Notes: generated by a model from the sequence alone, not told the origin. DNA of 32,000 nt from Halomicronema hongdechloris C2206 (GCF_002075285.3 NZ_CP021983.2:4320001-4352000), one strand, 5' to 3'. Positions 6,797 to 25,079 are shown, numbered from the stretch's first letter. Numbers and translations: made by a program.

Positions 6797-7852
6797 CTAG
6801 AACCGACCACCTACGATTAATCCAGCAACGATTAAGAGGGTTCGATAGGCTAAGGTGATGTCGATGCGGGGGGCGAGGGTAGCTCGATAGAGCGCGAAGG
6901 TGGTGCAGGCAATCACAGCGACCACCACAAAAGACCACAATCCTGGATAGGCTGCTAACACCAGGTCTAGAGCTAAACGAGCAATTACCGCTCCAGCGAA
7001 CCAGAAACAGATTTCTGTCCACCCGAGGGAGGCGGAACGACGACGATTGGAGGAGCGATGGTCAATTACCAAGACTGGTCTTAGCTTGAACCAGATGTCA
7101 CGGATCAAACTCCATGGTTCTGCCAATAGGGTGCTTAGGCCCCAATCGTCCCATCCCGGCTGAGAAGCTTGACGATGCTCAGCGAAGGTGCGATCGCGCA
7201 GGGTCCGAGCCACATCATCGGCTTCTCGCTCTGGCTGATAGAGATCCGCCGGACGGTAGGACAGCACATAGGCGCCTTGGTCGTCCTGATTAACTTGGGC
7301 CAGGATAGCCGTGGCATAGTCGCATAGCGGTATCTCACCACGCCCCTGCTGCCGATGGATCCAAGCAACGCGCTCAGCGGCCCGTTTCATCTCTAACATG
7401 GCTTGCTCTTGCTGTTGAGACAGATCATTGATTCGATCGGCCATGCTCCGCAGTCGCTGCCAGTGCAGCATCAGATCCGGCGGTGATTCTAAAGGCAGGG
7501 TAGAGACTACCGCGTTAGAACTATCTGGCTGGGATGGAGGGGGTAGCGGGGCAGGGGAGGTCGTATATTCATGGCTAGCAGATCCATGGCTAGCAGATCC
7601 ATGGCTAGTAGATCCATGGCTGGCAGATTCATGGCTGACAGTCTGATGCCTAGAACGTTGCTTCAACTGAGCAACCGTTGTGGCTAACTGAGCCAAATGC
7701 GGTGAAGCTGCCGCTGCCGCAACTGGCGACGACTGAGGTGACGTCTCAATCTCTCCCCAATCTACAGGAGGGCTAGGAGTCGAGGCATAGGATTGGCGCT
7801 GCTGCTGCAACTTTTCTCGAATGGCTTGCAAATCCATATCAGACTCGCTCAT
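6797..7852 (-). CDS. hypothetical membrane protein with (S-A/T-S-H-G)n repeat and C-terminal TM helices
   Basis: 351-codon ORF with ATG at 7852. It has a coiled-coil-like N-terminal half, an internal repeat SASHGSTSHGSASHGSASHE, and about three hydrophobic helices at the C-terminus. Confidence 0.6.
   Translation of the reverse strand: MSESDMDLQAIREKLQQQRQSYASTPSPPVDWGEIETSPQSSPVAAAAASPHLAQLATTVAQLKQRSRHQTVSHESASHGSTSHGSASHGSASHEYTTSPAPLPPPSQPDSSNAVVSTLPLESPPDLMLHWQRLRSMADRINDLSQQQEQAMLEMKRAAERVAWIHRQQGRGEIPLCDYATAILAQVNQDDQGAYVLSYRPADLYQPEREADDVARTLRDRTFAEHRQASQPGWDDWGLSTLLAEPWSLIRDIWFKLRPVLVIDHRSSNRRRSASLGWTEICFWFAGAVIARLALDLVLAAYPGLWSFVVVAVIACTTFALYRATLAPRIDITLAYRTLLIVAGLIVGGRF
7570..7640. 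repeat. 15-bp tandem repeat (CATGGCTAGCAGATC), about 4.7 copies, in frame inside the 6797..7852 CDS
   Basis: Read directly: units at 7570-7584, 7585-7599, 7600-7614 and 7615-7629, plus a partial copy. They encode the SxSHG pentapeptide repeat on the minus strand. Confidence 0.9.
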
Positions 7853-10795: not shown

Positions 10796-10931
10796 AGGGG
10801 ACAATTAACCAAGGGGAATTCCCTCCTCAGGATACTGATTTCCTGGCTCTCCGTCCTCTGTCCTGCCTGGGCCCCCACCTCTACAAAGCAGTGCTTTCTC
10901 CTGGCCAGATAGGATGGCTCAGCTCCTCTGT

Positions 10932-11000: not shown

Positions 11001-13532
11001 CTATGATCGGCTCTGCAGCAGCAACAGCAGGCTGCGGCGCTGCAAGTCTGTCTGGGCCATCACAATCGCCCGACTCAAACTGCGGCCAGTCAAGCTACCG
11101 GCTGAGGATTCGGCAGCCAGAGCCGTATCTGCCTGGGAAAACAGCCCTGGGATCCAGGAAGTTGCCCCATCTTCTCGGGGGGTCAGCGATAGGGATAATC
11201 CCCCCACTACAGCCAGGGGAAGCATCGTCGCCACCAGGGCCGTCCGCACCCGTTGGTAACGGCCGCTGCGACGGCTGTGACGAACATAGTCTTGGGCTAG
11301 GGTCGACAGCCAGGTGCGATCGCACTGGAGCAGTTGCTCCGCCTGCTGCAGCCGCGCCCTAGTCAGTAAATATTCTGGATGGTGGGTGTACCCCGCCTGG
11401 CGCCATTCCTGGGCCGCCGCGTCCAGCCGCCGCTTCTGGCGCAAGATGTCACGATTGTCCTGCAACCAGCCCTGTAGCAAGGGCCAGTGGCGAATCAACG
11501 ACTCGTGAACGATTTCTAAGGTTTGATCGAGCTGCAGGGGGGTCTCCATGGCCTGGTCAGCCCAGAGATGCCCTAAGGTCAAGCCAGCATTGTTCTGGCT
11601 CCGCCAAGCAATTTGCGGTAGATGCACCCCAGGGGACGGATGCTGGCGCTGCCGAGCACCGGCATGGTTTACTACCACTAGTCGGGCCGCTACCAGCTTT
11701 TCCAGCGTTCGCCCGATTAAGTCGGTGGAGAAATCTGCGTTGATCAGCTCTTCTGTAAGGGCACGGCGGCGGGTATCGTCTCCCCCTTCCCCCAGTTCAC
11801 ACAGGGCCAGAAAGATCCGTTGGGCCGCTTGCTGTTCCTGGACCGGCAGGTCTTCATAGATAGTCGTCGCGTAGTGAGTCAAGACATGGCGAATGCCACC
11901 GAGTTCGGCGTAGGCTTCTAGGGTGAGCCTCGGCGCCTCGTCATCGGGATCAATCTGACGGGCCTTCCAGAGACTGCGTAGGGTCTGCTGCAGGAGAGGT
12001 AGCTCTCCCGGTGCCCCTACGACATCTAGCAGCAGGCTGTAAATCAGATTCTTGTCATAGGTCAGCCCTACCTTCTCAGCCGGTTTCGTGATCGCCAGCT
12101 TCATCTGCTCGTAGTCCAACGGGGCGACAGCCAGGGTGTGGCGTCGCACCAGTTGCCTAAAGTCTGGGTAGTCGTTGAAATGTCCTAGGGCATCGGCACG
12201 CAGGGAAATCACGATCCGCAGGGGCGCCTCACTGGCTTGGCTGGCGCTTACCAACTGTTGGATGAATAAGTCCCGACAATGACGGATATCTTCGGTGTCA
12301 GGGCCCTGAAAAATTTGCTCCAGGTCGTCGATAATCAGCAACATCCGTCGATCGGGCCGTCGAGAGCCAGCCAAGCAGGCCCGTATCAGCTGGGTCAGTC
12401 CATCCTGGCCATTACAGAGAAACCGCTCGGCTTGCCGCAGTTGCTCTGCCCGCTCCAGCCCATCTGCCATGGGGTTGATAAATGCCTCGGCTAGGCAGCG
12501 CAGGGGCTCGTGATCGACGCTGACATATTGAATCTTCCAGTCAGTCCGCTCGGGGCGTTGACGCAGTTGATAGATCAGGCCGGCCCGCAGCAGGGAGGTT
12601 TTCCCACTACCCGAGGCTCCCACCACGGCACAGAAGGGCTGTTGGTATACCTTGTCGATCAACTGCTGGGTTAAGTCTTCCCGGCCGAAGAAATAGTCGC
12701 CATGGATATCGTCAAAGGGTTCCATGCCGCGATAGGGACAGAAGGCAAACCGTAATTGGCGCAGTCTTTCTAGGGCCGAGGTGGGCTTGCCTTGCACAAT
12801 CGTGGTGTCTCCAGAGGCGCGAGTCAAGACGATTTCGCTGCCGGAGCTTTCGAAGAGGGGCTGTTGCAGTTCGCCTTTGAGCCGCTGACTAACCCGCTCA
12901 GCCAGATGATAGTTGCTGACAATGCCCCCATCCGTGCGGTTGGGGTTGAGCCCGGCCACCAAAGCAGCCGTGAAGACACTGTGGGCATTGTCTAAGGCTT
13001 CGTAGGCGGCTTCGTACTCCCGGGAGGCCGCCATAAATAGGCGGTCGGTGCCATCTTGGGCCCCTGGGTCAGCCTCTAGAAAGCTCATAAATTCGCCGCT
13101 GTGGCAACAGTCTAAAATCACGACCCGTTGCCGTACCGGACTCTCTTGCAGCAGTCGCCGCAGCCAGAATAGCGAGATGCCGTAGCGCCCTTGGGCCGGG
13201 TTGGTATCGCTGGTGGCTAAATAGCCCTCCCGCACCCCAGCATGGCGCTGTAAGCCATGGCCCGAGTAGTAAAACACGGCTGTGTGGGGAATGTTTTTAC
13301 CGTTGGGCTTGAAGAGGTGTACCAAGGCCGCTTCTAGCTCCTCGGTGGTCACACCGGTCTGGAGACCCACCGAGGGCTTACCCGCGTGAATCACTTCGGG
13401 CAGTCGCCGGACTCGAAACTCTCCGTAGATTTGCAAGCAACTGGCCACGGCTTCAGCGTCTTTCGCTGGCGCACTCAATGATGGCAAGGCTTGGTAACTA
13501 TTGATTCCTACAATCAGTGCATCCCGTGACAT
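11001..13532 (-). CDS. caspase-like (peptidase C14, orthocaspase) domain fused to a STAND/NACHT-like P-loop NTPase, with a C-terminal TM helix and a short tail
   Basis: Caspase dyad context YYSGHG and LDCCHSG in the first ~170 aa. Then FCPYRGMEPF...FFGRE, Walker A GASGSGKTS and Walker B LLIIDDLEQ, followed by a helical region, a hydrophobic helix ALVATMLPLAVVGGLSLSL and 60 more residues. ATG at 13532 follows AAGGGG; the track start 13541 is a GTG. Confidence 0.85.
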   Translation of the reverse strand: MSRDALIVGINSYQALPSLSAPAKDAEAVASCLQIYGEFRVRRLPEVIHAGKPSVGLQTGVTTEELEAALVHLFKPNGKNIPHTAVFYYSGHGLQRHAGVREGYLATSDTNPAQGRYGISLFWLRRLLQESPVRQRVVILDCCHSGEFMSFLEADPGAQDGTDRLFMAASREYEAAYEALDNAHSVFTAALVAGLNPNRTDGGIVSNYHLAERVSQRLKGELQQPLFESSGSEIVLTRASGDTTIVQGKPTSALERLRQLRFAFCPYRGMEPFDDIHGDYFFGREDLTQQLIDKVYQQPFCAVVGASGSGKTSLLRAGLIYQLRQRPERTDWKIQYVSVDHEPLRCLAEAFINPMADGLERAEQLRQAERFLCNGQDGLTQLIRACLAGSRRPDRRMLLIIDDLEQIFQGPDTEDIRHCRDLFIQQLVSASQASEAPLRIVISLRADALGHFNDYPDFRQLVRRHTLAVAPLDYEQMKLAITKPAEKVGLTYDKNLIYSLLLDVVGAPGELPLLQQTLRSLWKARQIDPDDEAPRLTLEAYAELGGIRHVLTHYATTIYEDLPVQEQQAAQRIFLALCELGEGGDDTRRRALTEELINADFSTDLIGRTLEKLVAARLVVVNHAGARQRQHPSPGVHLPQIAWRSQNNAGLTLGHLWADQAMETPLQLDQTLEIVHESLIRHWPLLQGWLQDNRDILRQKRRLDAAAQEWRQAGYTHHPEYLLTRARLQQAEQLLQCDRTWLSTLAQDYVRHSRRSGRYQRVRTALVATMLPLAVVGGLSLSLTPREDGATSWIPGLFSQADTALAAESSAGSLTGRSLSRAIVMAQTDLQRRSLLLLLQSRS

Positions 13533-14139
13533 AATTCGCACCCCTTACAAGCGTCTAACCTTAATAAATAAAGTGAAGACTTTTAATGATGGCCACAGAA
13601 ATCACCATGTGCAAAAGCGATTTTCGGGCCAAAACAACAAAGCATTTTCGGGCAAGGAATTCTATTTCCTATGGCTCATAACTACTTGAGACCAAACCTT
13701 TTTATCTTGAGTGATTGCAGTCACATTGAAGATTGATTTAGGTCACAGTCCCATTTGAGTTGCCATAAACAATCCCTTCATCCCTGTGATATCAAGATAT
13801 CTGGGTTTTCATAAAAAACTTAAGAGGGGTAAGACCCTACATGTTTTGTCGATAGATTCGGGGAAAATACAATTTCTTTATCTCACCTTTAAATCTACCT
13901 CAGGAGAAACACGGATACGTTCGTAGAGCGATCAGCAAAAACCCTTAGTAAGCCCTTTTACAGGATTGATAATGCCAAGTAAGACAACCGCAATTAGACT
14001 TAATTTTGTCAACTCAAACCTTGATCATAAATCTTGCTTCAAGTCGGAAAATCAGTTGTTTTTGTTTGCTGGTTGTGTGAATAGACGCTGGGATACCTGA
14101 ACAACCAGCGAATTTGTGCCTATCTGTGCCGATGCGATC

Positions 14140-14164
14140 GCATCTCCATAGCATCTCCATAGCA
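14140..14164. repeat. 11-bp tandem repeat GCATCTCCATA, about 2.3 copies, abutting a HIP1 site
   Basis: Read directly, 60-85 bp upstream of the likely hydrolase start at 14225. Confidence 0.85.
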
Positions 14165-14224
14165 ATCACTGACAGCTTTGGGAATACCGTGGATTACCCT
14201 CTAAATAGATACCGAGGGCACATC

Positions 14225-15148
14225 ATGTTCGTTCCCCCTGACTTTGACGTCCGCTCTGTCGTTACTCCCTTGGGTACCATGGCGGCCGTGGTGCCTGGCC
14301 CAGAGGTGGTGCAGGCCGCCGATGATAGGCCATTGCTGGTATTTCTCCACGGCTTTGGTGGTGGCTCATCTCAATATGAGTGGTCACTGGTGTATCCAGC
14401 CTTCACCGCAGCGTATCGAGTGATTGCCGCCGATCTGCTGGGCTGGGGCGCCTCGGATCATCCCGCCCGTAATTACACCCTAGAGGACTATTTACAGTCC
14501 ATTCGGGCATTCCTAGCCCAGGTAGCCGATGGCCGCCCCGTGACGGTAGTGGCTTCGTCGCTGACGGCAGCGATGATCGCACGGCTGGCCAAGACGCATC
14601 CTGAGCAGTTTCAAGCCTTGATTTTGGTAGCGCCTGCTGGTCTATCGGACTTTGGAGAAGACTACGGAAATAGCCTGATTGCGCAACTGGTGAGAATTCC
14701 GGTGCTCGATCGGGTGCTCTATGCCAGTGCCATTGCCACCGAAGTCGGGATTAGCAATTTCCTAGAACAACGGCAATTTGCCAATCCCAGCCGGGTGACC
14801 CCAGAAATGGTCAAGGCTTATCTAAAGTCAGCAACTCAGCCTAATGCTGAGTATGCAGCCTTGGCCTTTGTGCGCGGCAACCTGTGCTTCGACGTGGCTA
14901 AGGATGTGGCGACCTTGACGGTGCCGACGGTCTTGCTGTGGGGTGAGCAGGCTCAATTGACGCCAGTGGAGCTAGGCCGTCGCCTAGCCGCGCTCAATCC
15001 TGAGGCCATTCAGGCATTGGAGGTGATCTCGGCTGTCGGCCTCACCCCCCAGTTAGAACAGCCAGGGGTGACCATCGGGTTGTTGTATAAGTGGTTGCCT
15101 CGATTGCATGCTGCAGGTAGCAAAGATACCCACACAACTACTGCTTAA
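14225..15148 (+). CDS. alpha/beta-fold hydrolase
   Basis: LVFLHGFGGGSS (oxyanion-hole HG region), a nucleophile-elbow-like VVASSLTAAM, and a typical length of about 307 aa. The track ORF begins at 14114, but that leader runs through HIP1 and tandem-repeat sequence, so ATG 14225 (MFVPPDF) is preferred. Confidence 0.8.
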   Translation: MFVPPDFDVRSVVTPLGTMAAVVPGPEVVQAADDRPLLVFLHGFGGGSSQYEWSLVYPAFTAAYRVIAADLLGWGASDHPARNYTLEDYLQSIRAFLAQVADGRPVTVVASSLTAAMIARLAKTHPEQFQALILVAPAGLSDFGEDYGNSLIAQLVRIPVLDRVLYASAIATEVGISNFLEQRQFANPSRVTPEMVKAYLKSATQPNAEYAALAFVRGNLCFDVAKDVATLTVPTVLLWGEQAQLTPVELGRRLAALNPEAIQALEVISAVGLTPQLEQPGVTIGLLYKWLPRLHAAGSKDTHTTTA

Positions 15149-15301
15149 CTGTCAGGAGGCAGTTAAGCAAGGACCAGAATATGCAGCTGGGGTTCAAAAG
15201 CCTGGTATAGCGTCGCAGAGCTTTGGGCCACGGGAGTTGCGCTGACGGGTAACGCTAATGCCCACCCAGAGGATAAACCATTTTACCTATGAGGCCACCA
15301 T

Positions 15302-15508
15302 CTAGGCGAAGAGAAGAATCACGACCAAGAAGCCGAGAGTTCCAACTAAAAAAGCCGGTGTATCGTTGGACTGCTGAGGTTTAGATGGCGGATTCAGATC
15401 TCGCTTGAAGTCGCAGCTAAGGCATTGGTAGGTGCCATCTTTAGGGCTAACAATGCTGCGTTTTCCACACTTGGGGCATTCGGTGACTGGGGCGGTAGAG
15501 ACGATCAT
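15302..15508 (-). CDS. small zinc-ribbon protein with C-terminal TM helix
   Basis: CPKCGK...x14...CLSCDF four-Cys ribbon and a hydrophobic tail AFLVGTLGFLVVILLFA. ATG at 15508 is preceded by AGGA; the longer track ORF starts at 15562. Confidence 0.5.
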   Translation of the reverse strand: MIVSTAPVTECPKCGKRSIVSPKDGTYQCLSCDFKRDLNPPSKPQQSNDTPAFLVGTLGFLVVILLFA

Positions 15509-15701
15509 GGTCCTGAGGAGAATAGGGGGCAATGGGGCTGGGACGCCTGTAGAACACTTCATCGTCCCGCTGATGCTTTCCAGAATGCTTATGGTTTCTC
15601 AATCTGTCGATGGAGAAAACCTCGGGAAAATTCAGGGGCTTGTTCAGCATTGCCAATGCCCTTGCCCTCTATCCTGGGTGTGTTTCTGGCAGCAGCTCTG
15701 A

Positions 15702-15962
15702 TTACTCGCCGCCGCTGGCAGTCTTCGTCCCAGAATCTTGCGTCAATGCCAGGGATATTGCTGCTTTGAGCTGTTGTGCCAAGATGCGTACACTAGGCTC
15801 GGTGAGCATGCCCGCATGGGTGCCCGGAATCTTTCGCACCTCAATGCCATCCTTAGCCATGCCGCTCCAACCGTAGTAGGGATCTCGGTAGGCCTGAATC
15901 CGTTTGATACTAGCTAAAAAGAGAGTTAATCGTCCAGGATAGGGAACCGGATTGTAGGCTTC
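15702..15962 (-). pseudogene. detached 3' fragment (last 86 codons + stop) of the NRPS thioesterase domain, separated from its gene by the IS630 element
   Basis: Minus-strand reading gives EAYNPVPYPGRLTLFLAS...GWSGMAKDGIEVRKIPGTHAGMLTEPSVRILAQQLKAAI...*, the C-terminal catalytic-His region of type I thioesterases. It has no start codon and joins 17113 in frame once the IS is removed. Confidence 0.8.
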
Positions 15963-15964
15963 TA

Positions 15965-17112
15965 TAGCAACCCTAAATGAGTTTAGAATGGGTAGTATAT
16001 AAATATCATCAAGCTGTCAATACAGTTGTACTCATGAATAGTTTTCAATTAGAACACCAACAAAAAGTAGATAATCGTGCTATTCTATCAGACTTTATAA
16101 GTAGTAATCCTGATTCAAGAGAGCTTAAGCGAGCATTGGCTGTAAAAATGGCATTGGAGGGTGAGCCATATTTTAAGATTACCAAATTTCTGGGAATAAA
16201 CAAGTCTTTTATTACATATTGGAAGAACAGATTCGAAGCACAAGGCATTGAAGGTATTAAACTCGGCTACCAAGGATCAAAAAGTTACCTAACCCCAGAT
16301 GATCGTACAGAAATTATCTCGTGGCTGAGAACCAGAAACTACTGGAACTTTGATGAATTAGTTTCATATTTAGATGAACATTATGATGTGATTTACAAGT
16401 CTAAGCAAAGCTACTATACACTTTTTTCGGAAGCAGGTATTAGTTGGAAGAAATCTCAAAAAACCAACCCGAAATCTGATCCAGCTCTAGTCAAAAAAAA
16501 AGAGAAGAAATCCAAGGATTTATCCGTCAAAACCAGTTCAAAATTTGAGTCTGGGGAATTGATTGTACTTTTTTTGGATGAGTGTCATCTCCTTTGGGGT
16601 GATGTTTGTGGATATGTCTGGGGCAAGACAGATATGCGAATCGAAATCCCTATTACAAACGAGAGAATCAGGCAAACATATTATGGCGCATTAAACTATC
16701 AAACAAAAGAATTTATTTTGCATCCTTACGAGAAAGGGAATGGAGAGAATACAGTTGCTTTTATGAAGTACTTGCAGGAACAAAATCCTGGGAAGCAAAT
16801 CGCATTAATTTGGGATGGCGCTAGTTATCATAAGTCACAAGAGATCAAAGATTTTTTAGCTACAGTCAATCATGGGAAGGAAGAGACAGAATGGCAATTC
16901 AAATGTATTCTATTTGCACCCAATTCACCAGAACAAAATCCAGTGGAAGATGTTTGGTTACAAGCCAAAAATTCATTGAGAAGATTTTGGAGGTTGTGTC
17001 GTTCTTTCCCCGCTGTAAAGTATCTGTTTGAGTTCTTTATAGATCATCAAAAGTTCGATTTTTCTAAAATAGAAGAATATTCACCTTGTTCATAAATCAA
17101 CTGGGATTGCTA
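15965..17112 (+). mobile_element. IS630-family insertion sequence (about 1.15 kb) with TA target-site duplication
   Basis: Terminal inverted repeats are TAGCAACCC... on the left and ...GGGATTGCTA on the right. TA sits at 15963-15964 and again at 17113-17114. There is a single DDE transposase ORF, and the element is clearly more AT-rich than its flanks. Confidence 0.85.
15977..17095 (+). CDS. IS630-family (Tc1/mariner-like DDE) transposase
   Basis: N-terminal HTH region, then LFLDECHL ... IWDGASYHKS ... PNSPEQNPVEDVW, the DD..E triad context of IS630 transposases. The real start may be the internal Met at 16034. Confidence 0.85.
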   Translation: MSLEWVVYKYHQAVNTVVLMNSFQLEHQQKVDNRAILSDFISSNPDSRELKRALAVKMALEGEPYFKITKFLGINKSFITYWKNRFEAQGIEGIKLGYQGSKSYLTPDDRTEIISWLRTRNYWNFDELVSYLDEHYDVIYKSKQSYYTLFSEAGISWKKSQKTNPKSDPALVKKKEKKSKDLSVKTSSKFESGELIVLFLDECHLLWGDVCGYVWGKTDMRIEIPITNERIRQTYYGALNYQTKEFILHPYEKGNGENTVAFMKYLQEQNPGKQIALIWDGASYHKSQEIKDFLATVNHGKEETEWQFKCILFAPNSPEQNPVEDVWLQAKNSLRRFWRLCRSFPAVKYLFEFFIDHQKFDFSKIEEYSPCS

Positions 17113-19458
17113 TAGTGCTTTCCAATGGGCGCGGCGGATGCGATTGACGGTGAGTTGTGCAGGGGAGGCGGAGGCTTGGGGACGATGCTGGGGCCAGAAT
17201 TTACCGCCGAAGTGGGCCAGCTTATCGCTGAGTTCCTTCTTCAAATAGGCGATCTGGTCATGGCGATCCATCTGCTCTAGATTGCTGAGTTTGACCGCGA
17301 TGCGATCGCGCCAGCTGGGAGATCCCGACGCCAGGCTCTGGGGTCCTTGCCGATCCAGAATGGCCACTAGGCCCACTGGCAACCCCTGGGCCCAGAGTTG
17401 CTGGGCCATTTCGAAGGCCACCATGCTGCCGAAGGAATGGCCCCCCAACAGGTAGGGTCCCTGGGGCTGTACGGCTCGAATCACCTCGATATAGGCGGCA
17501 GCCATGGCTTCGATGCTGTCGTAGGGGAGATCTTCACCATTGAGACCCTGAGCCTGGAGCCCATAGACTGGATACTCTGGGCCTAAATATTGGGCTAGCT
17601 GACGAAAGTACAGCACATTGCCGCCAAGCCCATGGACACAGAAAAAGGGAGGGGGGTCACCATGGGGCTGCAGAGGAACTAGGGTGGCCCAGGAAATGGC
17701 GGCGTCTTGGCGCTGCAGCACTCGGGCTAACTGCTGAATTGTGGGGGCCTGGAGCAAGGTGGCCAGGGGTAAGCGCACCTGGAATTGCTCTTCGATGCCG
17801 CTAAATAATTGCAGTGCTTGTAGGGAGGTGCCCCCTAGGTCGAAGAAGTTGTCGGTGACGCCGAGGGTTGGCTGGTTGAGTACGGCTGTCCAGAGATGTA
17901 ATAAGTGATTCTCTAGAGGGGTCTGCGGACTAATTAAGGCTGATGGGGCCAGTTTTGTCGATGGCTGGATGTGGGAAGCGAGGGGGGGTATGGGAAGGCG
18001 CTCAATAGGTTGCTCCAGATCCTGTGCGATCGCATCCAGGCAATGCTCGTAGGTTTGCAGTAGAGTAGCAATGGTATCCGAGTGAAATTGACTCTGACGA
18101 TACTCTAACCGGGCCACAAAAGTGTCTTGCCGTTGCTGCCAGAAGCAGGATAGGTCGAAATCGGTGGTCTGTTTAGGCAAGTGCAGAGGATAAACCGTTG
18201 CATTTGGTAGTTGCAACTGCCCCTGCCGGGCATCTAATAGGGCAAATAAGACCCGTGATAAGGCACTCGCGGTTACCCCTGACAACTCGCCTAATCGCTG
18301 AAAGGGGGCATCTTGATGCTCCAGAGCCGAGAGAACGACCTCTTTGACACATATCAATAACTGCTTAAAGCTGGGGAAATTGGAGAGGTCGCAGCGCAGC
18401 GGCACAATGTTGTTAAAATACCCCACGAGGGATTGTATTTCTGGCCGGTTACGGCCTGCAACCGGGGTACAGACCACCACATCTTCCTGCCCACCATAGC
18501 GATGAACCGTGGCCACAAAGGCAGCCAGTAAAACCGTGAAGGGAGTCGTGTGCAACTGAGCGGCTACCTGACTAATGGTGCTAGATAGTTGGGACGAAAG
18601 CACCAGAGTTTGGTCAGCGGCCCGATAATCAACCGGATTTGAGGTCAGAGCGTCTACCGGCAACTGCAGGGGAGCACACTTGGCCAACTGGTTCTGCCAA
18701 TAGGTCAGGTGAGGGACTAAAATGGCGTCTTGGAGCCATCGTCGCTGCCACAGCGCAAAATCAGCATATTGAATCGGTAGTGGTGACCAGGGAAGCGGCT
18801 GTCGAGTCTGAATAGCCTGATAAGCCATTCCTAAATCCCCCCAGAAAATGCCCTCTGAATGCCCATCAAATACTAGATGATGAATCCCCAAGCCCAGGAT
18901 GTAAGTATGCTCATCCAGCCGGAGCACAATTCCCCTGAGCAAGGGCGCATGGGTCAGGTCGAAGGGAGCATTTACGGCATTCTGAAGTATCTGCAGAGCC
19001 TGATGCTGACGGTCTTGAGCTGGCACAGATCGTAGGTCCAACTGAGTCAATGGGACTGCCACCTCGGCTTCAATCGCCTGCACCGGTTGACCATCAACCA
19101 CCCTAAAGGCCGTTCGTAGGGCCTCATGGCGGTTAATTACTGCGGCTAAACTGTGTTCTAGGATGTGGGGGTCGAAGTTGCCCCGAACTTGGAAGCCATA
19201 GGTAATCGTGTGAGCCCCTGGCCTCAGCGCTTCTAGGAACCACAAACGCTCTTGGGAAAAGGACAAGGGTAATCGCTGCTGGCGAGAGACTGGAGCTAAG
19301 GGGGGCGCCTGATTCTGGGCTGCCATGACTGCTTGAATCGCTTGCCAGAAGTCATGCTCAGGTTTTTCCGGTTGCCCTCTAGACACCTCATCAGGGATTG
19401 GAGCGCCCTCTGAGGATAGGGAAAAAGCGTGGGAATCGGATTGTTCTGATAACCCCAT
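17110..19458 (-). CDS. NRPS-like condensation - peptidyl carrier - thioesterase protein (no adenylation domain), 3'-truncated by IS630 insertion
   Basis: C-domain active site HHLVFDGHS, carrier motif LGGTSLQAL, and TE nucleophile GHSFGSMVAFE. The current stop TAG (17110-17112) is supplied by the IS terminus. Confidence 0.85.
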   Translation of the reverse strand: MGLSEQSDSHAFSLSSEGAPIPDEVSRGQPEKPEHDFWQAIQAVMAAQNQAPPLAPVSRQQRLPLSFSQERLWFLEALRPGAHTITYGFQVRGNFDPHILEHSLAAVINRHEALRTAFRVVDGQPVQAIEAEVAVPLTQLDLRSVPAQDRQHQALQILQNAVNAPFDLTHAPLLRGIVLRLDEHTYILGLGIHHLVFDGHSEGIFWGDLGMAYQAIQTRQPLPWSPLPIQYADFALWQRRWLQDAILVPHLTYWQNQLAKCAPLQLPVDALTSNPVDYRAADQTLVLSSQLSSTISQVAAQLHTTPFTVLLAAFVATVHRYGGQEDVVVCTPVAGRNRPEIQSLVGYFNNIVPLRCDLSNFPSFKQLLICVKEVVLSALEHQDAPFQRLGELSGVTASALSRVLFALLDARQGQLQLPNATVYPLHLPKQTTDFDLSCFWQQRQDTFVARLEYRQSQFHSDTIATLLQTYEHCLDAIAQDLEQPIERLPIPPLASHIQPSTKLAPSALISPQTPLENHLLHLWTAVLNQPTLGVTDNFFDLGGTSLQALQLFSGIEEQFQVRLPLATLLQAPTIQQLARVLQRQDAAISWATLVPLQPHGDPPPFFCVHGLGGNVLYFRQLAQYLGPEYPVYGLQAQGLNGEDLPYDSIEAMAAAYIEVIRAVQPQGPYLLGGHSFGSMVAFEMAQQLWAQGLPVGLVAILDRQGPQSLASGSPSWRDRIAVKLSNLEQMDRHDQIAYLKKELSDKLAHFGGKFWPQHRPQASASPAQLTVNRIRRAHWKAL

Positions 19459-19466
19459 GATCTTGC

Positions 19467-19730
19467 CTAAGCATCAACTGGAACACCTTGCTTCTGGCAC
19501 AGTAGGTGCATGATATTGCCTACTGTCTTGAAGTTCTCCAGAGTAATCTCGGTGGCCTCAAACTGCAGATTAAATTCAGTCTGCAAGCTGAAAATCAAGG
19601 TCATAGCGTTGATGGAATCCAGCCCCATTTCAAAGAGATTGCTATCTTCCTTGAGATTTTCCGGGTGGGCATAGGGCAGGATGGACTGAATAACGGCATG
19701 GATCCTTTGAGTAGTTGTATTAGAAGTCAT
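19467..19730 (-). CDS. acyl/aryl carrier protein
   Basis: 87 aa with the phosphopantetheine attachment motif GLDSINAMTL. It lies between the adenylating enzyme and the C-T-TE gene, with gaps of only 6-8 bp. Confidence 0.8.
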   Translation of the reverse strand: MTSNTTTQRIHAVIQSILPYAHPENLKEDSNLFEMGLDSINAMTLIFSLQTEFNLQFEATEITLENFKTVGNIMHLLCQKQGVPVDA

Positions 19731-19736
19731 GACAGA

Positions 19737-21167
19737 TTAAATGAGTTCTTTTCTTAAAATTTTGCCGAGAGGGCTGCGAGGAATCTGATCTCTAAATTCG
19801 ATTATCTTAGGAACTTTAAAGTTTGCCATCTGCTGGTGGCAATAGTCGATCAACTCTGCCGACTCACAATCCATTTGAGGTACTACAACGGCCTTGATGA
19901 CTGCGCCGGCATGGGGATGCTGTTTGCCGACAACTACCACATCTCTAACTTTATGATGTTGACGCAGGACTGTTTCCACTTCTAAGGGATCTACTTTATA
20001 GCCACCGGTATCAATAAAGATACGTTTTCGTCCTTGAATATACAGGTATCCAGCTTCATCTTTTTTGCCGAGATCTCCGGTGAAGAAGTATCCGTTGCGA
20101 AAGGCCCGATTCTCGGCGTCAGAGGCATGGCAATATCCCTTGGCCAGGGTCTCACTCTTGATCGCAACTTCGCCAACTTCACCAGCTGCCATGGGGCGAT
20201 CGGCGTCGTCCATGATGGTGATGTCGACGTTTTCCATGGGGCGGCCAATGGACTCGAGGGTTGCGATGGCCCTGGAGGGCCGATCTAGCCCCTCTGGGGC
20301 GGCTTCGCCAATGACCATCGCATCCTCACCGAGGTTAATGCTGACGGACCCTGCCTCGGTACAGCCGTATAGTTGGCGAATGGGAATGCCAAAACGGTGG
20401 TAGAACTTCTTAAAAATGTCTTGACTGAGGACACTTCCGGCTGAGATACAGAGTCGCAAACTAGAGAAGTTGATGGGGGCATCTTGGGGAGTAGTAGCCA
20501 GCACATTGTAGAGATAGGGCACTCCCGGAAAGATAGAAATCTGCTCGTGCTGGATCAGTTGGGTCACCTCGGCCCGACGAAAAACGAAGGGCACCTCCAC
20601 TAGAGCACCTGCCTTGACACTGGGCTCTAGCATGATCAAAGCGGCCCCGGCGCAGCTGGCCGCGAGCAGACATTCTCCTAAGCCATAGGCATGGTATAGC
20701 GGCACGAAGGCGAGAATACGATCGGTGGCTGTAATGCCCAGGGTGGTAACGCAATTATGGGCTTGATGGTAGAGATTATGCTGCGTGCGACAGAGGCGCT
20801 TTGGCTTGCCGGTGGAACCAGAGGTGTACTGGTAAACTACGGGGCCAGCAAATGAGTCAGAGGGTGACGTTGGGCTGAAATTGGAATCCTGCAGGTAAGG
20901 TGTAGGTTTGCCGATCTCAGCCTCTGAGCCTTGATCGCTGGCGAGATGGGACACCACCATCACCTGAATGGCCATGTCTAAGTCGTGAATCACACGACGA
21001 CAGAGATCGGCGTGGAAGGCATCGGTGATTATCAGCTGAGGGCGGCTGTCGGCCAGGCAGTGGCCTAACTCGCTGGGCTTCGAGCTGGGGTTTAAGAGCA
21101 GTGCGATCGCATGTAGCTGGGCCACTGCAAAAAAGCTGGCCACAAACTCGGGGCAGTTTGGCAGCAC
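19737..21167 (-). CDS. AMP-dependent acyl/aryl adenylating enzyme (ANL superfamily), 5'-truncated by IS5 insertion
   Basis: Motifs YTSGSTGKPKR, GYFFTGDLG, GRKRIFIDTGGYKV and PRSPLGKILRKEL. The open frame continues upstream to the IS boundary at 21206-21210 with no plausible native start. Confidence 0.85.
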   Translation of the reverse strand: MLPNCPEFVASFFAVAQLHAIALLLNPSSKPSELGHCLADSRPQLIITDAFHADLCRRVIHDLDMAIQVMVVSHLASDQGSEAEIGKPTPYLQDSNFSPTSPSDSFAGPVVYQYTSGSTGKPKRLCRTQHNLYHQAHNCVTTLGITATDRILAFVPLYHAYGLGECLLAASCAGAALIMLEPSVKAGALVEVPFVFRRAEVTQLIQHEQISIFPGVPYLYNVLATTPQDAPINFSSLRLCISAGSVLSQDIFKKFYHRFGIPIRQLYGCTEAGSVSINLGEDAMVIGEAAPEGLDRPSRAIATLESIGRPMENVDITIMDDADRPMAAGEVGEVAIKSETLAKGYCHASDAENRAFRNGYFFTGDLGKKDEAGYLYIQGRKRIFIDTGGYKVDPLEVETVLRQHHKVRDVVVVGKQHPHAGAVIKAVVVPQMDCESAELIDYCHQQMANFKVPKIIEFRDQIPRSPLGKILRKELI

Positions 21168-21210
21168 TAAGGCTACACAACTACCTGGCTCTACCTGCCG
21201 AGAATCTAAG

Positions 21211-22496
21211 GGGGACCTCGATTAATCAGTTTTCTTTAGCTAATGGCGTCTCATTTGAGACCGTCAAGGTGACTCAAAGAGAGTCCGAGACATTCCACCG
21301 AAAAAAGCTTCCCATTTTGACAAAAAAATAGGGTTGGAAGACCACGTTTAAGTCGATTTCCCGGCTTTAGGTCCGATTATCTTGCCAGTTCAGCCGATGC
21401 AGCACGTTGGGTTTCGAGACACACAAACCGCTTCAGGTTATACACCAGATTTTTCAGACCTAGCTGGGTCTGGGCACGGGCTAACCCGATGCTGCGCACC
21501 ACCTTGCCACCCATGCTGGTGACGACATCTCCGAAGATGTGCTCCACTCTGGCACGGGTTTTGGAGCGCTCTCGATTCGCGGTTTTCTGGGCCTCGCTTA
21601 AGGGGCGATTGCGATAGGCCCGTTCATTTATATGCGGCTCAAACCCTATCAATTTCAGCACCTCGACAATCAGCACGGAGAGATACGCACTATCGGCCCA
21701 AAGTCCATCGCCGCTATTATCCGCATCGAGCAACTCGCCCAAGACCTGCGAGTCATGGACCGACGCATCGGTGACGCTGTAACGGCGAATGAGCTTAAAG
21801 CCGGCATCACTATTGATGTGGTTTTTGTAGCCGTAGTGGGACGTTCCATTTTTCTTCGTCCATCGGGCGTCAACATCTTTTTGCGCGAGCTGATGAGGGG
21901 TCTCTTGCCACTCAACGGGAACCTCACCCTGCTTGAGGGTTTGGTTCTCCTCACGGGTGTTGCGTTGTTTGGGAACTGGAATCAAGGTCGCATCCACAAT
22001 TTGCCCATCCTTGGCGGCATAGCCTGCCCCTTGCAGATAGGCTCCAAACTGCTCGAACAACGCCTCCACCAAGCCGTGCTGCTGCAACTGTTCTCGGAAG
22101 AGCCACACCGTCGTTGCATCCGGGACTCTATCCTCAAGCCCCAAACCGAGAAATTGCATGAAGGACAGTCGGTCGTTGACCTGATATTCCAGTTCGTCAT
22201 CGCTGATGTTGTATAGCTTTTGCAGCACCAGCATCTTGAAGAGTAACAGGACATCGGTGGGGTTACGACCGGCCTGGCTTTTGCGCGGTTTCTCTCGAAT
22301 CTGCATCAGAATCGGACGAAAGGTCTCCCACGGCACCAGTTGATTCAACCGATTCAGTACCGCCTTCTTTTGCTCCAGTTTTTGCTGGCGCTCTTCGATA
22401 TCCCAGAATCCCTGCTGTCCCATGGCCTGCGTGCTTCAACAAAACCGACCTTATGATCTCATACTGAGATCGCTCTGGCTATTTTTCGAGGTGCCC
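21211..22496 (-). mobile_element. IS5-family insertion sequence (about 1.29 kb) with 4-bp target duplication
   Basis: Ends are GGGGACCTCGATTAAT... and the reverse complement GGGCACCTCGAAAAAT. They are flanked by TAAG at 21207-21210 and 22497-22500; the register is ambiguous with CTAA, a YTAR-type IS5 target. Confidence 0.8.
21377..22423 (-). CDS. IS5-family DDE transposase
   Basis: 348 aa. The N-terminal region LLFKMLVLQKLYNISDDELEYQVNDRLSFMQFLGL is typical of the InsH-like N-terminal domain. Then DATLIP..., ...WADSAYLS... and a C-terminal RARVEHIFG block. Confidence 0.85.
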   Translation of the reverse strand: MGQQGFWDIEERQQKLEQKKAVLNRLNQLVPWETFRPILMQIREKPRKSQAGRNPTDVLLLFKMLVLQKLYNISDDELEYQVNDRLSFMQFLGLGLEDRVPDATTVWLFREQLQQHGLVEALFEQFGAYLQGAGYAAKDGQIVDATLIPVPKQRNTREENQTLKQGEVPVEWQETPHQLAQKDVDARWTKKNGTSHYGYKNHINSDAGFKLIRRYSVTDASVHDSQVLGELLDADNSGDGLWADSAYLSVLIVEVLKLIGFEPHINERAYRNRPLSEAQKTANRERSKTRARVEHIFGDVVTSMGGKVVRSIGLARAQTQLGLKNLVYNLKRFVCLETQRAASAELAR

Positions 22497-22625
22497 TAAG
22501 GTATCCTTGAGTTCATTCACCCGCTGCAGTAGTTGGCTGTAAGTGAGTCGCCGTTGCCCATAGACCACGGCTAGTGTCTCGCCATGGTGTTTGACGGTGT
22601 GGTGAAGCATGGAGGTCAGCATCAT
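22497..22625 (-). pseudogene. detached 5' fragment (first 43 codons) of the adenylating-enzyme gene
   Basis: AGGAAcct-ATGATG start. It reads MMLTSMLHHTVKHHGETLAVVYGQRRLTYSQLLQRVNELKDTL, a typical ANL N-terminus. It ends exactly at the IS5 duplication and joins 21206 in frame. Confidence 0.75.
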
Positions 22626-22825
22626 AGGTTCCTACTGAGAAGACCAATCAGTGTCTTGAGGGCATGGCTCAGGACGTCTGGACGCTTAAGAGCTAATTTG
22701 CAAAGGAAATCTTAAAGAGCCGTCAAGGCAAGTGTTCTCAAGGCTTCTAGCGATCTTGCCGGAGTGTTCGCGGTGTTTCTGAAAACCTTGCTCTGACTAC
22801 TATTTAGGCGGTTTGCAAATCACCT

Positions 22826-23821
22826 CTAACAGCGGTCTGAGATGATGGCTTCGATTTCGATATTCAGTTCTGAACGACAAATATCAGATTGTAAATACAG
22901 CACCCGATCGTCTTCCCTAAGTCCAATCATTTGAGAGAATAAGCTCTGGATGTAGTCGGTATCTTCTAAGTGCCTGATATAGACCTTGAAAAAGCGCTCA
23001 TAATCATCACCATTGGGGAAAAAACTCCCATAGCTGTGGCGCTCACTGACAAATCCCATGGATTCAAAAATTAGGCTCATATTATCCAGGGTGGTATACA
23101 GCTGATCTGCAGTATCTTCTAGGGTTACGGATTGATGGCCCTTAATACTTGCCGTACCGGACAAATATCCCACCCGTTTACTGGCAACATCAACACAGGT
23201 ACCTCGAGCGAAGCTAGGGGGTCTAGGACCATAGCATCGAGGATATTGGTAGGCAGATACTTGCTCCGGATTTTCAATGTGCATCCCTGGCGTTTTGCCG
23301 GCGAGGAAATACATTACTAATTTAGTATCGTTGATACCGACAGCCGACGCTGCTGGCAATTTGCGGCTAAAATTGCTGCCCAGAAAATGCTCGAAGGCTA
23401 GGGAGCGACCCTTGCAAAAGGATCGATAGTTTTCGATACCTTGGGTTTCTCGATTGATAAAAGGCACATAGTGCCAAATACGGTACAGATGCCAATTTTG
23501 GGTGATGTCTAGAAAGCTTAGATAGGCATCGTAAACATCTCGTTCTAAAGGGAAGGTGGCATCTAGGACAATTCCTCCCGCCAAATGGTCTTCACCCTCG
23601 AGCAAGCAAAAGCCATTCTTCAGAGAAACCCTGCCGGGGATATCAGTAACACTTTCCTGGATTTGACGGCCAAGCGCAGGGATTTTCATATCTATTGTCA
23701 GGCCCCTATTGCTCCAGGATAGCCCAGTGCTTTTTTGATTAAATTGGACTGCCAAACCGTAATTACGATCATCTAATCGTCGAGAATCTGATTCATAAAA
23801 CAGTTGAGTTGACATTATCAT
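22826..23821 (-). CDS. FkbO/Hyg5/XanB2-like chorismatase (chorismate-transforming enzyme, hydroxybenzoate-forming family)
   Basis: 331 aa with LYRIWHYVPFINRETQGIENYRSFCKGR and ENPEQVSAYQYPRCYGPRPPSFARGT. From memory these match the conserved blocks of FkbO/Hyg5-family chorismatases. This is an eye-level assignment that needs an HMM check. Confidence 0.6.
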   Translation of the reverse strand: MIMSTQLFYESDSRRLDDRNYGLAVQFNQKSTGLSWSNRGLTIDMKIPALGRQIQESVTDIPGRVSLKNGFCLLEGEDHLAGGIVLDATFPLERDVYDAYLSFLDITQNWHLYRIWHYVPFINRETQGIENYRSFCKGRSLAFEHFLGSNFSRKLPAASAVGINDTKLVMYFLAGKTPGMHIENPEQVSAYQYPRCYGPRPPSFARGTCVDVASKRVGYLSGTASIKGHQSVTLEDTADQLYTTLDNMSLIFESMGFVSERHSYGSFFPNGDDYERFFKVYIRHLEDTDYIQSLFSQMIGLREDDRVLYLQSDICRSELNIEIEAIISDRC

Positions 23822-23892
23822 GATTCACTATTGATCAAAAGATATGAGTCACTTGCACAACCATGCCATGCCCTTAGCCATCGCATACATAC

Positions 23893-23914
23893 TATCCTCA
23901 CAGAGCTGAGGATA
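23893..23914. promoter_or_regulatory. 8-bp inverted repeat TATCCTCA-N6-TGAGGATA upstream of the chorismatase-like gene
   Basis: Perfect palindromic arms 72-93 bp upstream of ATG 23821, inside a 565-bp AT-rich spacer with no ORFs. Confidence 0.25.
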
Positions 23915-24386
23915 AGGGAGTAGACTTCATTGGGGATCATCTTTATTGGGGACTATTTAGAAAATCAGTATTGCCAGGCCCAAGGATCGTAAAAAATCGG
24001 GGCCACTTCAAACTAAACGACAATCTGAAACTTTATTTGGGTCAGAGCTTTATATTTAAGGCTGATCTGCCTCAGGCTGATTAGATTAAGTAAACAATTT
24101 TAGAGGTTTGGCACCTTGCCTTGCCTCATTGAAATCCAATCTCAGGCTGCCTTCAAGTCTTATCCGGAAACTTTACGAGGCCTTTACTAGGAATTAACTT
24201 TGGAGTTTTTTCTGAGTGGAAAACAGTCAGTCTGAGCATTGCTCGGCAAGAATGTCGCCTCCAGATCAGAATCGATGGCTGGCGGCCAGCGAACTCCGAT
24301 TTGGCTCTAGGCAAGGGTTGCCTAAGCAGAGAACCATGGCCACCAGTAGAGAGGCGGCGGCAGATTTCAGGGTTGGCCACGGTGTA

Positions 24387-25079
24387 CTAGGGGCTGGCAA
24401 GGCGAGCCACATAACGCTGCACCAGGCTGTCGATGCCAGTAATGGCGGTGCCCACAACGACGGCGTAGGCGCCCAGGTTAATGGCACGCCGGGCCATCTC
24501 CGGCGACGCCAGCCCCCCTTCACAGAGAATCGGCACCGACAGCTGCTCCACTAGGTGACTTAACAAGGTGAAGTTTGGCGGGGTCAGATGGCGTGTGGCG
24601 TCGGTGTAGCCAGATAAGGTGGTGCCAATCAGGTCGGCCCCAGCCCTAGAAGCTGCGATCGCAGCTTCTAGCGTATCCACATCGGCCATGACCGGTCGCT
24701 GTAGTTCCTCATGGATACGACGAATTAGCCCCGATACAGTGTCAGGGCCATGACGAGGGCGCTGGGTGGCATCGATGGCAATGATGTCGGCCCCGGCCTC
24801 TGCCACGGCGATAGCATGGTGAAATTGGGGCGTAATGTAAACCTCTATGCCCGGCATGGTGCGTTTCCAGAGGCCAATGATCGGGGCCTCGATTCGGGCC
24901 CGCACGGCTCGAATATGGGCAGGGCTGTCGATGCGCACTCCCGCTGCTGCCTGATTCACTGCTGCCTCAGCCATGGCTGCAATCACCTCTGGATGATGCA
25001 GGGGAGAGAAGGGGGGAGCCTGACAGGAGACGATTAAGCCCCTGCGTAGGGCTGCTAGGACATCATTGGCCGCTGCCAT
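24387..25079 (-). CDS. nanE: putative N-acetylmannosamine-6-phosphate 2-epimerase
   Basis: 230 aa TIM-barrel pattern: LIVSCQA...GVRIDSPAHIRAVR...PIIGLWKR...YITP...AGADIIAIDAT.RPR...GTTLSGYT. Confidence 0.8.
   Translation of the reverse strand: MAAANDVLAALRRGLIVSCQAPPFSPLHHPEVIAAMAEAAVNQAAAGVRIDSPAHIRAVRARIEAPIIGLWKRTMPGIEVYITPQFHHAIAVAEAGADIIAIDATQRPRHGPDTVSGLIRRIHEELQRPVMADVDTLEAAIAASRAGADLIGTTLSGYTDATRHLTPPNFTLLSHLVEQLSVPILCEGGLASPEMARRAINLGAYAVVVGTAITGIDSLVQRYVARLASP

Follow-up and report, generated by a model that had tools for sequence, protein, structure and literature searches.

A probable chorismatase-primed locus of Halomicronema hongdechloris, interrupted by two insertion sequences and related to the ambigol carrier-and-release cassette

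The ambigol Ab5-Ab10 module is reportedly found in Fischerella ambigua 108b. It consists of a chorismate lyase, a stand-alone adenylation (A) enzyme, a 3-deoxy-D-arabino-heptulosonate 7-phosphate synthase (DAHPS), an acyl carrier protein (ACP), the condensation-thiolation-thioesterase (C-T-TE) protein Ab9 and a halogenase. While bound to the ACP, 4-hydroxybenzoate (4-HBA) is said to be chlorinated, then moved by the C domain of Ab9 to that protein's own carrier domain and finally hydrolysed by its TE to the free acid. The last module of the syringomycin synthetase is split, with SyrB1 (A-T), the halogenase SyrB2 and the shuttle SyrC supplying the terminal C-T-TE of SyrE in trans (PMC8949500). 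The present analysis concerns a 32,000-nucleotide (32-kb) stretch of the genome of Halomicronema hongdechloris C2206 (NZ_CP021983.2:4320001-4352000), referred to as the window, in which positions 15702-23821 encode a chorismatase, an aryl-acid ligase, an ACP and a C-T-TE protein that lacks an A domain (A-less). The locus is probably a variant of a conserved cyanobacterial ambigol-type carrier-and-release cassette that is primed by the chorismatase and has been inactivated by insertion sequences (IS).

The listing of open reading frames (ORFs) and the profile searches of the window place the four genes on the minus strand in the order chorismatase, ANL ligase, ACP and C-T-TE. The chorismatase gene (22826-23821) encodes an intact 331 aa protein of the FkbO/Hyg5/XanB2 family, and a spacer of 200 bp (22626-22825) separates its stop from the start of the ligase gene. 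The latter is severed by a minus-strand IS5-family element of 1286 bp (21211-22496) into a 5' fragment of codons 1-42 (22501-22625) and a 3' part (19737-21210) that holds the AMP-binding and AMP-binding_C domains. It is followed by the gene for a free-standing acyl/aryl carrier protein of 87 aa (19467-19730; PP-binding, 4.5e-12). The C-T-TE gene comes last and is divided by a plus-strand IS630-family element of 1148 bp (15965-17112) into a 5' part for residues 1-781 (17115-19458; Condensation, PP-binding and a partial Thioesterase) and a 3' part for residues 782-868 (15702-15964). A sequence-only reading of the window had named all four gene products, and profile searches and motifs agree with it on each; the gaps it gave, 6 bp between ligase and ACP (19731-19736) and 8 bp between ACP and C-T-TE (19459-19466), are exact. 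The tight spacing that it described for all four genes holds for the last three but not for the chorismatase, given the 200 bp spacer. The locus was rightly called an orphan, as no other nonribosomal peptide synthetase (NRPS) gene, no polyketide synthase (PKS) gene, including any for a ketosynthase (KS), and no obvious tailoring gene were found in the 32 kb.

The cassette is not confined to H. hongdechloris. A scan with the chorismatase alignment, taking one genome per species, returned 80 loci; these and the loci from other searches are cited by their L numbers. In the nearest 16 of the 80 a homologous ligase adjoins the chorismatase wherever the contig extends far enough, and the minimal chorismatase-ligase-ACP-C-T-TE set is present in L002, L006, L009, L010, L169 and L170. 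Including other relatives, the four-gene cassette occurs in at least eight cyanobacterial loci besides the window, and the suspicion that the four genes might never be syntenic in other genomes is thereby dispelled. More broadly, a C-T-TE gene stands beside genes for a chorismate-utilising enzyme, an ANL ligase and an ACP in the window, L002, L006, L009, L010, L081/L168, L169, L170 and L164-L166. No tailoring gene such as a halogenase was found in the nine minimal cassettes, nor do the minimal cassettes hold a second A domain, an A-T didomain, a second ligase or a SyrC-like shuttle. The genes that flank them are unrelated between hosts, and this, together with the patchy distribution, is better evidence of longer-term mobility of the cassette than its base composition.

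Other cassettes are elaborated in various ways. A luciferase-like monooxygenase is added in L164, L005, L008, L012 and L015, and a UbiC-like lyase together with a DAHPS in L003 and L005. The chorismatase and ligase are fused in L007, L011, L013 and L016, and in L011 and L013 a C-A-T-TE protein takes the place of the C-T-TE. Among the cassettes that begin with a UbiC-like lyase, L165 includes an O-methyltransferase and L166 has no tailoring gene. L082 from Scytonema sp. HK-05 encodes a DAHPS, a UbiC-like (Rv2949c-like) lyase, an ANL enzyme, an ACP, a C-T-TE and a halogenase. L088, the one informative match in a metagenome scan with the C-T-TE alignment that otherwise returned almost only generic multimodular NRPSs, encodes a halogenase, a P450, a UbiC-like lyase, an ANL enzyme, a DAHPS, an ACP and a protein that begins with a C domain. 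The gene layout of L082 and L088 matches the one reported for ambigol ab1-ab10.

A comparison of L002 (184-8590) with L166 (2596-11604) sets the loading genes apart from the remainder of the cassette. The two loci share a DRL_cat oxidoreductase (89% identity), a GDSL lipase with RTX repeats (65%) and the C-T-TE (78%), whereas the loading block has been exchanged: the ANL enzymes are 59% and the ACPs 55% identical, and an FkbO-like enzyme in the one stands against a UbiC-like lyase and a DAHPS in the other. If the proposed reading is true, loading, tailoring on the carrier and release by an A-less C-T-TE would make up a modular family that is widespread in cyanobacteria and not a one-off, in which a generic C-T-TE is preceded by interchangeable loading blocks, each made up of a chorismatase or chorismate lyase and the ligase and ACP that go with it, and each swapped as a whole. 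It would also provide a simple genome-mining rule for hydroxybenzoate-derived products, for which the intact orthologs include L168, L006 and L169.

Some of the relatives show features of their own. The fused chorismatase-ligase genes of L013 and L016 (Caldora/Symploca) are 90% identical; L016 has a C-T-TE gene followed by a second gene that begins C-A (14275-20909), and L013 has a remnant of about 124 aa of a C-T-TE N-terminus (14189-14563) ahead of its C-A-T-TE gene. L018-L027 (for instance L023 10001-12023 and L024 10001-12012), from Richelia, Oscillatoria, Aetokthonos, Okeania and Prochloraceae, hold a conserved two-gene unit in which the gene for a chorismatase with the Hyg5 signature immediately precedes one for a luciferase-like monooxygenase; the latter enzyme shares 74-79% identity with its counterpart in the C-T-TE cassettes. 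Genes for a ligase, an ACP or a C-T-TE are absent from the 10 kb around these units.

Chorismatase, ligase and carrier protein

The chorismatase matches PF21168 (FkbO_Hyg5-like_N) with 73.6 bits (cutoff 27; 1.9e-20) and has a RidA-like C-terminal domain, and its residues 96-327 align to Hyg5 (5AG3, 1e-36) and FkbO (4BPS, 9e-28). Glu322 (22856-22858), which lies in an IEIE motif, corresponds to Glu334 of Hyg5, the catalytic glutamate of that enzyme (PMC7170507). With this alignment and the conserved catalytic residue, the protein is more than a generic RidA/YjgF homologue, which had been named as the finding that would undo its assignment. Cys315 (22877-22879) and Gly222 (23156-23158) correspond to C327 and G240 of Hyg5. 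All three residues are invariant across 27 relatives, as are R114, E130, Y132, R139, R206 and H229, which are conserved in Hyg5 too. Chorismatases of the CH-II type (Hyg5-type), which form 3-hydroxybenzoate (3-HBA) only, are marked by a Gly/Gly/Cys selectivity signature, G164/G231/C318 in Nat-hyg5 (PMC7170507). Two of its three residues are matched in the window by Gly222 and Cys315, and the first position is putatively taken by Ala160, assuming a numbering offset of 9. The Ala160 pattern is common to the chorismatases of Opitutaceae that occur in a xanthomonadin-like context. Gly, as in Hyg5, occupies this position in a more distant cyanobacterial clade of chorismatases whose sole partner is the monooxygenase.

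Three independent observations argue that the product of the chorismatase would differ from 4-HBA. L003 and L005 encode both a chorismatase and a UbiC-like lyase, the loading block has been exchanged between L002 and L166, and the pocket of the ligase co-varies with the type of the first enzyme, as described below. The simplest candidate for the product would be 3-HBA.

As it stands, the ligase ORF (19737-21167) matches AMP-binding with 4e-60 at profile positions 52-383 only, an N-terminal truncation. It is without the first ~56 residues of the protein, and the IS5 element sits after codon 42. Removal of the element together with one TAAG copy yields a 532 aa ORF beginning MMLTSMLHH, which is 75% identical to the intact 519 aa ortholog of L081/L168 and 43-75% identical to 16 cassette ligases. 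The reconstituted protein contains the motifs YTSGSTGKPK (170-179), PLYHAYG (212-218), LYGCTE (322-327), FTGDLG (418-423) and PLGKILRK (522-529); core motifs A3, A5, A7 and A8, the A10 lysine and both subdomains are present. After LYGCTE it also carries a lineage-specific insertion of 15 residues (MVIGEAAPEGLDRPS), encoded by 45 nt in frame at about 20264-20309 (minus strand), which is missing from the close ortholog L081 and from 15 of 15 other cassette ligases.

Over the specificity helix the ligase can be aligned with EntE. At the positions of EntE Tyr236 and Ser240, reportedly aryl-specificity sites in structural work on DhbE, each of the 13 ligases partnered with a chorismatase has Tyr/Glu (Val in one), and each of the four partnered with a lyase has His/Asn. 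This co-variation, the 6 bp that separate the ligase and ACP genes and the strict co-inheritance of the two are indirect indications that the ACP rather than CoA would be the acceptor and that the ligase would be specific for 3-HBA. The phosphopantetheine serine of the ACP (19614-19616) lies in a GLDS motif, and the protein was aligned with the cassette ACPs from 10 other loci.

The priming step of xanthomonadin biosynthesis had been offered as an analogy for these three genes, and finding a chorismatase, an aryl:ACP ligase and a free-standing ACP in series lends it support; going by the reference list of PMC7170507, the trio corresponds to XanB2/XanA2/XanC. The analogy could be carried further, with the aryl-ACP priming a polyketide or aryl-polyene synthase from another locus, while the C-T-TE would serve only as an editing or overflow exit. 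Besides the match of the trio to its xanthomonadin counterparts, which is drawn from the same reference list, this extension would fit the Opitutaceae chorismatases of the PAASAVG/SGT/DICR pattern, whose genes lie beside those for an AMP-ligase, MMPL, a LolA-like protein, GT2 and an acyltransferase (L038, for example, where no KS or chain-length factor (CLF) was found among the proteins scanned). It is nevertheless very hard to credit, given that the C-T-TE is strictly co-inherited with the trio and that the window is as free of KS and PKS genes as the 10 kb around the related cyanobacterial loci. No type II KS/CLF-like, MMPL, LolA-like, GT2 or acyltransferase gene adjoins the chorismatase gene in the window.

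The C-T-TE protein and its terminal step

The C-T-TE ORF as it stands (17110-19458, minus strand) contains the motifs HHLVFDG, GGTS and GHSFG, and its domains are Condensation (residues 60-491, 3.9e-86), PP-binding (519-580, 5.4e-15) and Thioesterase (from 604). Profile searches gave no AMP-binding match in the protein and the linker between C and T is short, in agreement with its earlier description as A-less. Residue 781 is the last before the break in the TE domain, which covers positions 2-112 of the 226 in the Thioesterase profile. Once the IS630 element and one TA copy are removed, an ORF of 868 aa results that ends at 15702, where the sequence-only reading had placed the boundary of the locus, and that is 75% identical to the intact 858 aa ortholog P0122. 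Its HHLVFDG motif is encoded at 18862-18882, the T-domain Ser545 at 17824-17826, GHSFG with the nucleophile Ser675 at 17428-17442, the TE Asp702 at 17353-17355 and the TE catalytic His831, within GTHAG, at 15810-15824.

Among the 120 top-scoring homologs of the repaired C-T-TE, 60 are A-less and have a length of 800-940 aa. A neighbour-joining tree of 129 C domains, which is distance-based and carries no support values, gathers nearly all of the A-less C domains into a single clade, with the C-A-T-TE proteins outside it. The family alignment (A2) shows no variation at the first His or the Asp of HHxxxD, nor at the T-domain serine, and hardly any at the second His. In the column of the TE nucleophile (residue 675 in the window) the residue is Ser or Cys, with Cys in about 8 of the 60 A-less proteins. 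The alignment also brings out a previously unremarked conserved N-terminal stretch, DFWQAI..QNQAPPL, of which DFWQAI is encoded at 19336-19353. P0125 (1207 aa) and P0126 (1178 aa) are A-less variants with an additional PF20408 domain between C and T. The C-T-TE of the window belongs to a large, coherent A-less clade, the first enzyme of whose cassettes is either a chorismatase or a UbiC-like lyase.

On the reading proposed here, the chorismatase would turn chorismate into a monohydroxybenzoate, most likely 3-HBA and possibly also 4-HBA, which the ligase would adenylate and thioesterify to the free-standing ACP. The C domain would then take over the aryl group from the ACP and pass it to the T domain of the same protein, and the TE would release it, which in the one characterised relative, Ab9, reportedly takes place by hydrolysis. 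Tailoring in related cassettes, by a halogenase, an O-methyltransferase and possibly the luciferase-like monooxygenase, appears to occur while the aryl group is bound to the carrier.

Several points weigh against this reading. The TIGR04444 score of the chorismatase, 172.3 bits, lies under the curated cutoff of 325 bits and marks a divergent clade; identity is merely ~35% to Hyg5 (over the C-terminal two thirds) and 33% to FkbO; and Ala160 (23342-23344) stands where Hyg5 appears to have Gly173. All three make the regiochemistry of the product less certain. Of the Ab9 precedent, with its reported transfer and hydrolysis, the present comparison corroborates the gene layout alone. The luciferase-like monooxygenase may act on the free acid and not on the carrier, because it is also found beside chorismatases in neighbourhoods that lack carrier genes. 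Finally, the nine minimal cassettes suggest that the terminal step or the acceptor differs from Ab9-type hydrolysis, since ATP-dependent loading followed by hydrolysis would, when no tailoring intervenes, simply regenerate the acid. The tailoring-free cassette raises the question of how a C-T-TE acts on an unmodified aryl-ACP, for which tailoring in trans, another nucleophile for the TE or C domain, or the joining of one aryl group to another are possibilities.

The sequence-only reading had favoured the second of these, an aryl-amide or aryl-ester. The aryl-ACP would be the donor, the C domain would couple its hydroxybenzoyl group either with a free amine or alcohol or with an acceptor placed on the T domain in trans, and the TE would free the product. 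This is not the default reading because the A-less C-T-TE falls in the same clade as those of L082 and L088, which have the layout reported for ambigol; nor was a second A domain or a shuttle found with any of the nine minimal cassettes. It is a live rival because a cassette that lacks tailoring and only hydrolyses would amount to a futile cycle. The HHxxxD motif, the T-domain serine and the TE triad are conserved in the family, hence each domain is under selection, and L011 and L013, whose loading genes are closely related, employ a C-A-T-TE that should give an aroyl-amino acid, although the C domains of the A-less proteins group apart from those of the C-A-T-TE proteins. A phenolic nucleophile could come from the second hydroxybenzoate-forming enzyme in L003 and L005, and the C-T-TE of SyrE receives its substrate in trans (PMC8949500); yet the minimal cassettes offer neither an A-T didomain, a SyrC-like shuttle nor a second ligase, and have unrelated flanks. 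The characterised relative Ab9 moreover reportedly yields the free acid, and an aryl-amide or aryl-ester seems unlikely. A role as a SyrC-like shuttle was weighed for the alpha/beta hydrolase encoded at 14114-15148 and dismissed, as this protein is kept only in the close relative L168 and missing from all other cassettes.

Self-condensation, in which the phenolic hydroxyl of the T-bound aryl group accepts the next aryl-ACP and the TE releases or cyclises a depside or oligo-ester, would account for the conservation of a tailoring-free cassette and for the retention of C, T and TE alike. The Cys nucleophile of 8 of the 60 family members also fits, such a nucleophile being found in some non-hydrolytic TEs. 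The proposal is however purely inferential, no sequence feature here marks an ester-forming C domain, and to our knowledge there is no precedent for a self-condensing C-T-TE or for such metabolites in cyanobacteria; it is rated very unlikely. Taken more generally, it is conceivable, though doubtful, that the C-T-TE of the tailoring-free cassette performs non-hydrolytic chemistry, be it the esterification or amidation of an unrecognised acceptor or self-condensation to depsides or oligo-esters. If true, this would point to an unexplored class of small aryl metabolites across cyanobacteria and to a new use of an NRPS C domain.

Insertion sequences, inheritance and neighbouring genes

The genome of H. 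hongdechloris has a GC content of 54.6% and 123 IS-related ORFs (PMC6416890). The IS5-family element in the ligase gene encodes a transposase of 348 aa (21377-22423, minus strand; NF033581, 296 bits, cutoff 140) with DDE_Tnp_1 and DUF772 domains, has inverted repeats GGG(G/C)ACCTCGA at its ends and is bordered by a 4 bp duplication, TAAG, at 21207-21210 and 22497-22500. The IS630-family element in the C-T-TE gene encodes a transposase of 372 aa (15977-17095, plus strand; NF033545, 186 bits, cutoff 100) with DDE_3 and HTH domains, and has imperfect inverted repeats TAGCAAYCC and a TA duplication at 15963-15964 and 17113-17114. Its GC content of 35.7%, against 54.6% for the genome, suggests that it arrived recently from a low-GC donor. 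Extra IS copies and repeats were sought across the window and none was found.

The IS5 element removes the N-terminus of the ligase and the IS630 element the catalytic His of the TE; the four-gene pathway is therefore presumably inactive in H. hongdechloris, and no product is to be expected from the cluster in this organism. The need for a repaired operon, implied by the sequence-only reading, is borne out, as excision restores both frames and every catalytic motif is intact after the in silico removal of both elements. Both insertions look recent, because deviations at family-invariant columns are no more frequent than in the intact ortholog (14 against 16 of 98 columns lost in one protein alignment, and 11 against 9 of 124 in the other).

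An IS-free orthologous locus, the search for which had been proposed at the outset, is found in L168, a metagenome contig of 154 kb. L168 and L081 hold collinear genes for the chorismatase, a ligase of 519 aa, an ACP of 87 aa and a C-T-TE of 858 aa. They also have the flanks of the window, NanE, GlcNAc 2-epimerase and QueG on one side and the alpha/beta hydrolase, a caspase-nSTAND protein and an SMC protein on the other. The flank proteins are 82-94% and the cassette proteins 64-76% identical between the window and L168/L081. The identical neighbours on both sides indicate that the cassette has been inherited vertically at this chromosomal site.

The block had been described as more AT-rich than its surroundings. 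This applies to the chorismatase (45.0% GC) and ACP (44.7%) genes but not to those of the ligase (53%) and C-T-TE (55%), whose values are like those of the flanks (55.5-55.9%); GC content in the region drops lowest in the IS630 element. In the ortholog, as in four of four low-GC hosts checked, the ACP gene has a lower GC content than the genes for the ligase and the C-T-TE; that of the chorismatase gene lies clearly lower in the ortholog and just slightly lower in the other hosts checked. As L168 shares the chromosomal site and the low GC content of the ACP gene, and less strongly of the chorismatase gene, recurs in other hosts, the horizontal origin that the AT-richness had hinted at finds little backing, and horizontal transfer based on GC content was rejected as a strong claim.

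An Rfam search of the whole window, including the spacer at 22626-22825, returned no families, and promoter- and terminator-like sites at 15000-24600 are as numerous as in shuffled sequence. Elsewhere in the window, an uncharacterised ORF of 351 aa (6797-7852, minus strand) contains a 15-nt tandem repeat (ATCCATGGCTAGCAG, ~6 copies) at 7567-7656. A caspase-like (Peptidase_C14) nSTAND NTPase and an SMC/AAA_15/AAA_23 ATPase are encoded side by side on the minus strand (11001-13541 and 8033-10804), and the pair, which is kept in L168 and L081, is possibly a defence-type module.

Comparison with known systems

The aryl-capping NRPS systems EntE/EntB/EntF, DhbE/B/F and VibE/B/H resemble the locus in the adenylation of an aryl acid, the aryl carrier and a C domain that takes an aryl thioester as donor. 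In contrast to them, the C-T-TE of the window is without an A domain and hence without an amino-acid acceptor, no transport genes are present, and the aryl acid comes from a chorismatase and not by the isochorismate route. A siderophore-type aryl-capped NRPS was rejected on account of the missing A domain and transport genes.

As in the cassettes, loading in syringomycin synthesis falls to a separate unit, the substrate is tailored while carrier-bound, and the T domain of an A-less C-T-TE then receives it. The C domain of syringomycin synthesis, however, joins an upstream octapeptide and the acyltransferase SyrC acts as a shuttle, whereas the window has neither an upstream peptide nor a shuttle gene.

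The 3-hydroxybenzoate synthases Hyg5, Cuv10 and Nat-hyg5 (CH-II) belong to the same fold and family as the chorismatase of the window, which keeps their catalytic Glu, but its product is predicted to go to an ACP and a C-T-TE instead of the loading domain of a modular PKS. The Ala/Gly/Cys pattern is shared with the chorismatases of xanthomonadin-like contexts, and here the difference lies in the partner, an NRPS-type C-T-TE and not a type II PKS.

The ambigol system shares the logic that leads from chorismate through hydroxybenzoate and aryl-ACP to a C-T-TE. Comparison of the window with L082 gives identities of 49% for the ligase, ~42% for the ACP and 41-42% for the C-T-TE, and the A-less clade takes in the C domains of both. 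The window differs in that its first enzyme is a non-homologous chorismatase and not a UbiC-like lyase, that the ligase pocket is of the Y/E type where the lyase type has H/N, and that it has no DAHPS, halogenase or P450, with two of its genes interrupted by IS elements. Read in this way, the chorismatase-primed version represents an unstudied variant of the ambigol-type system.

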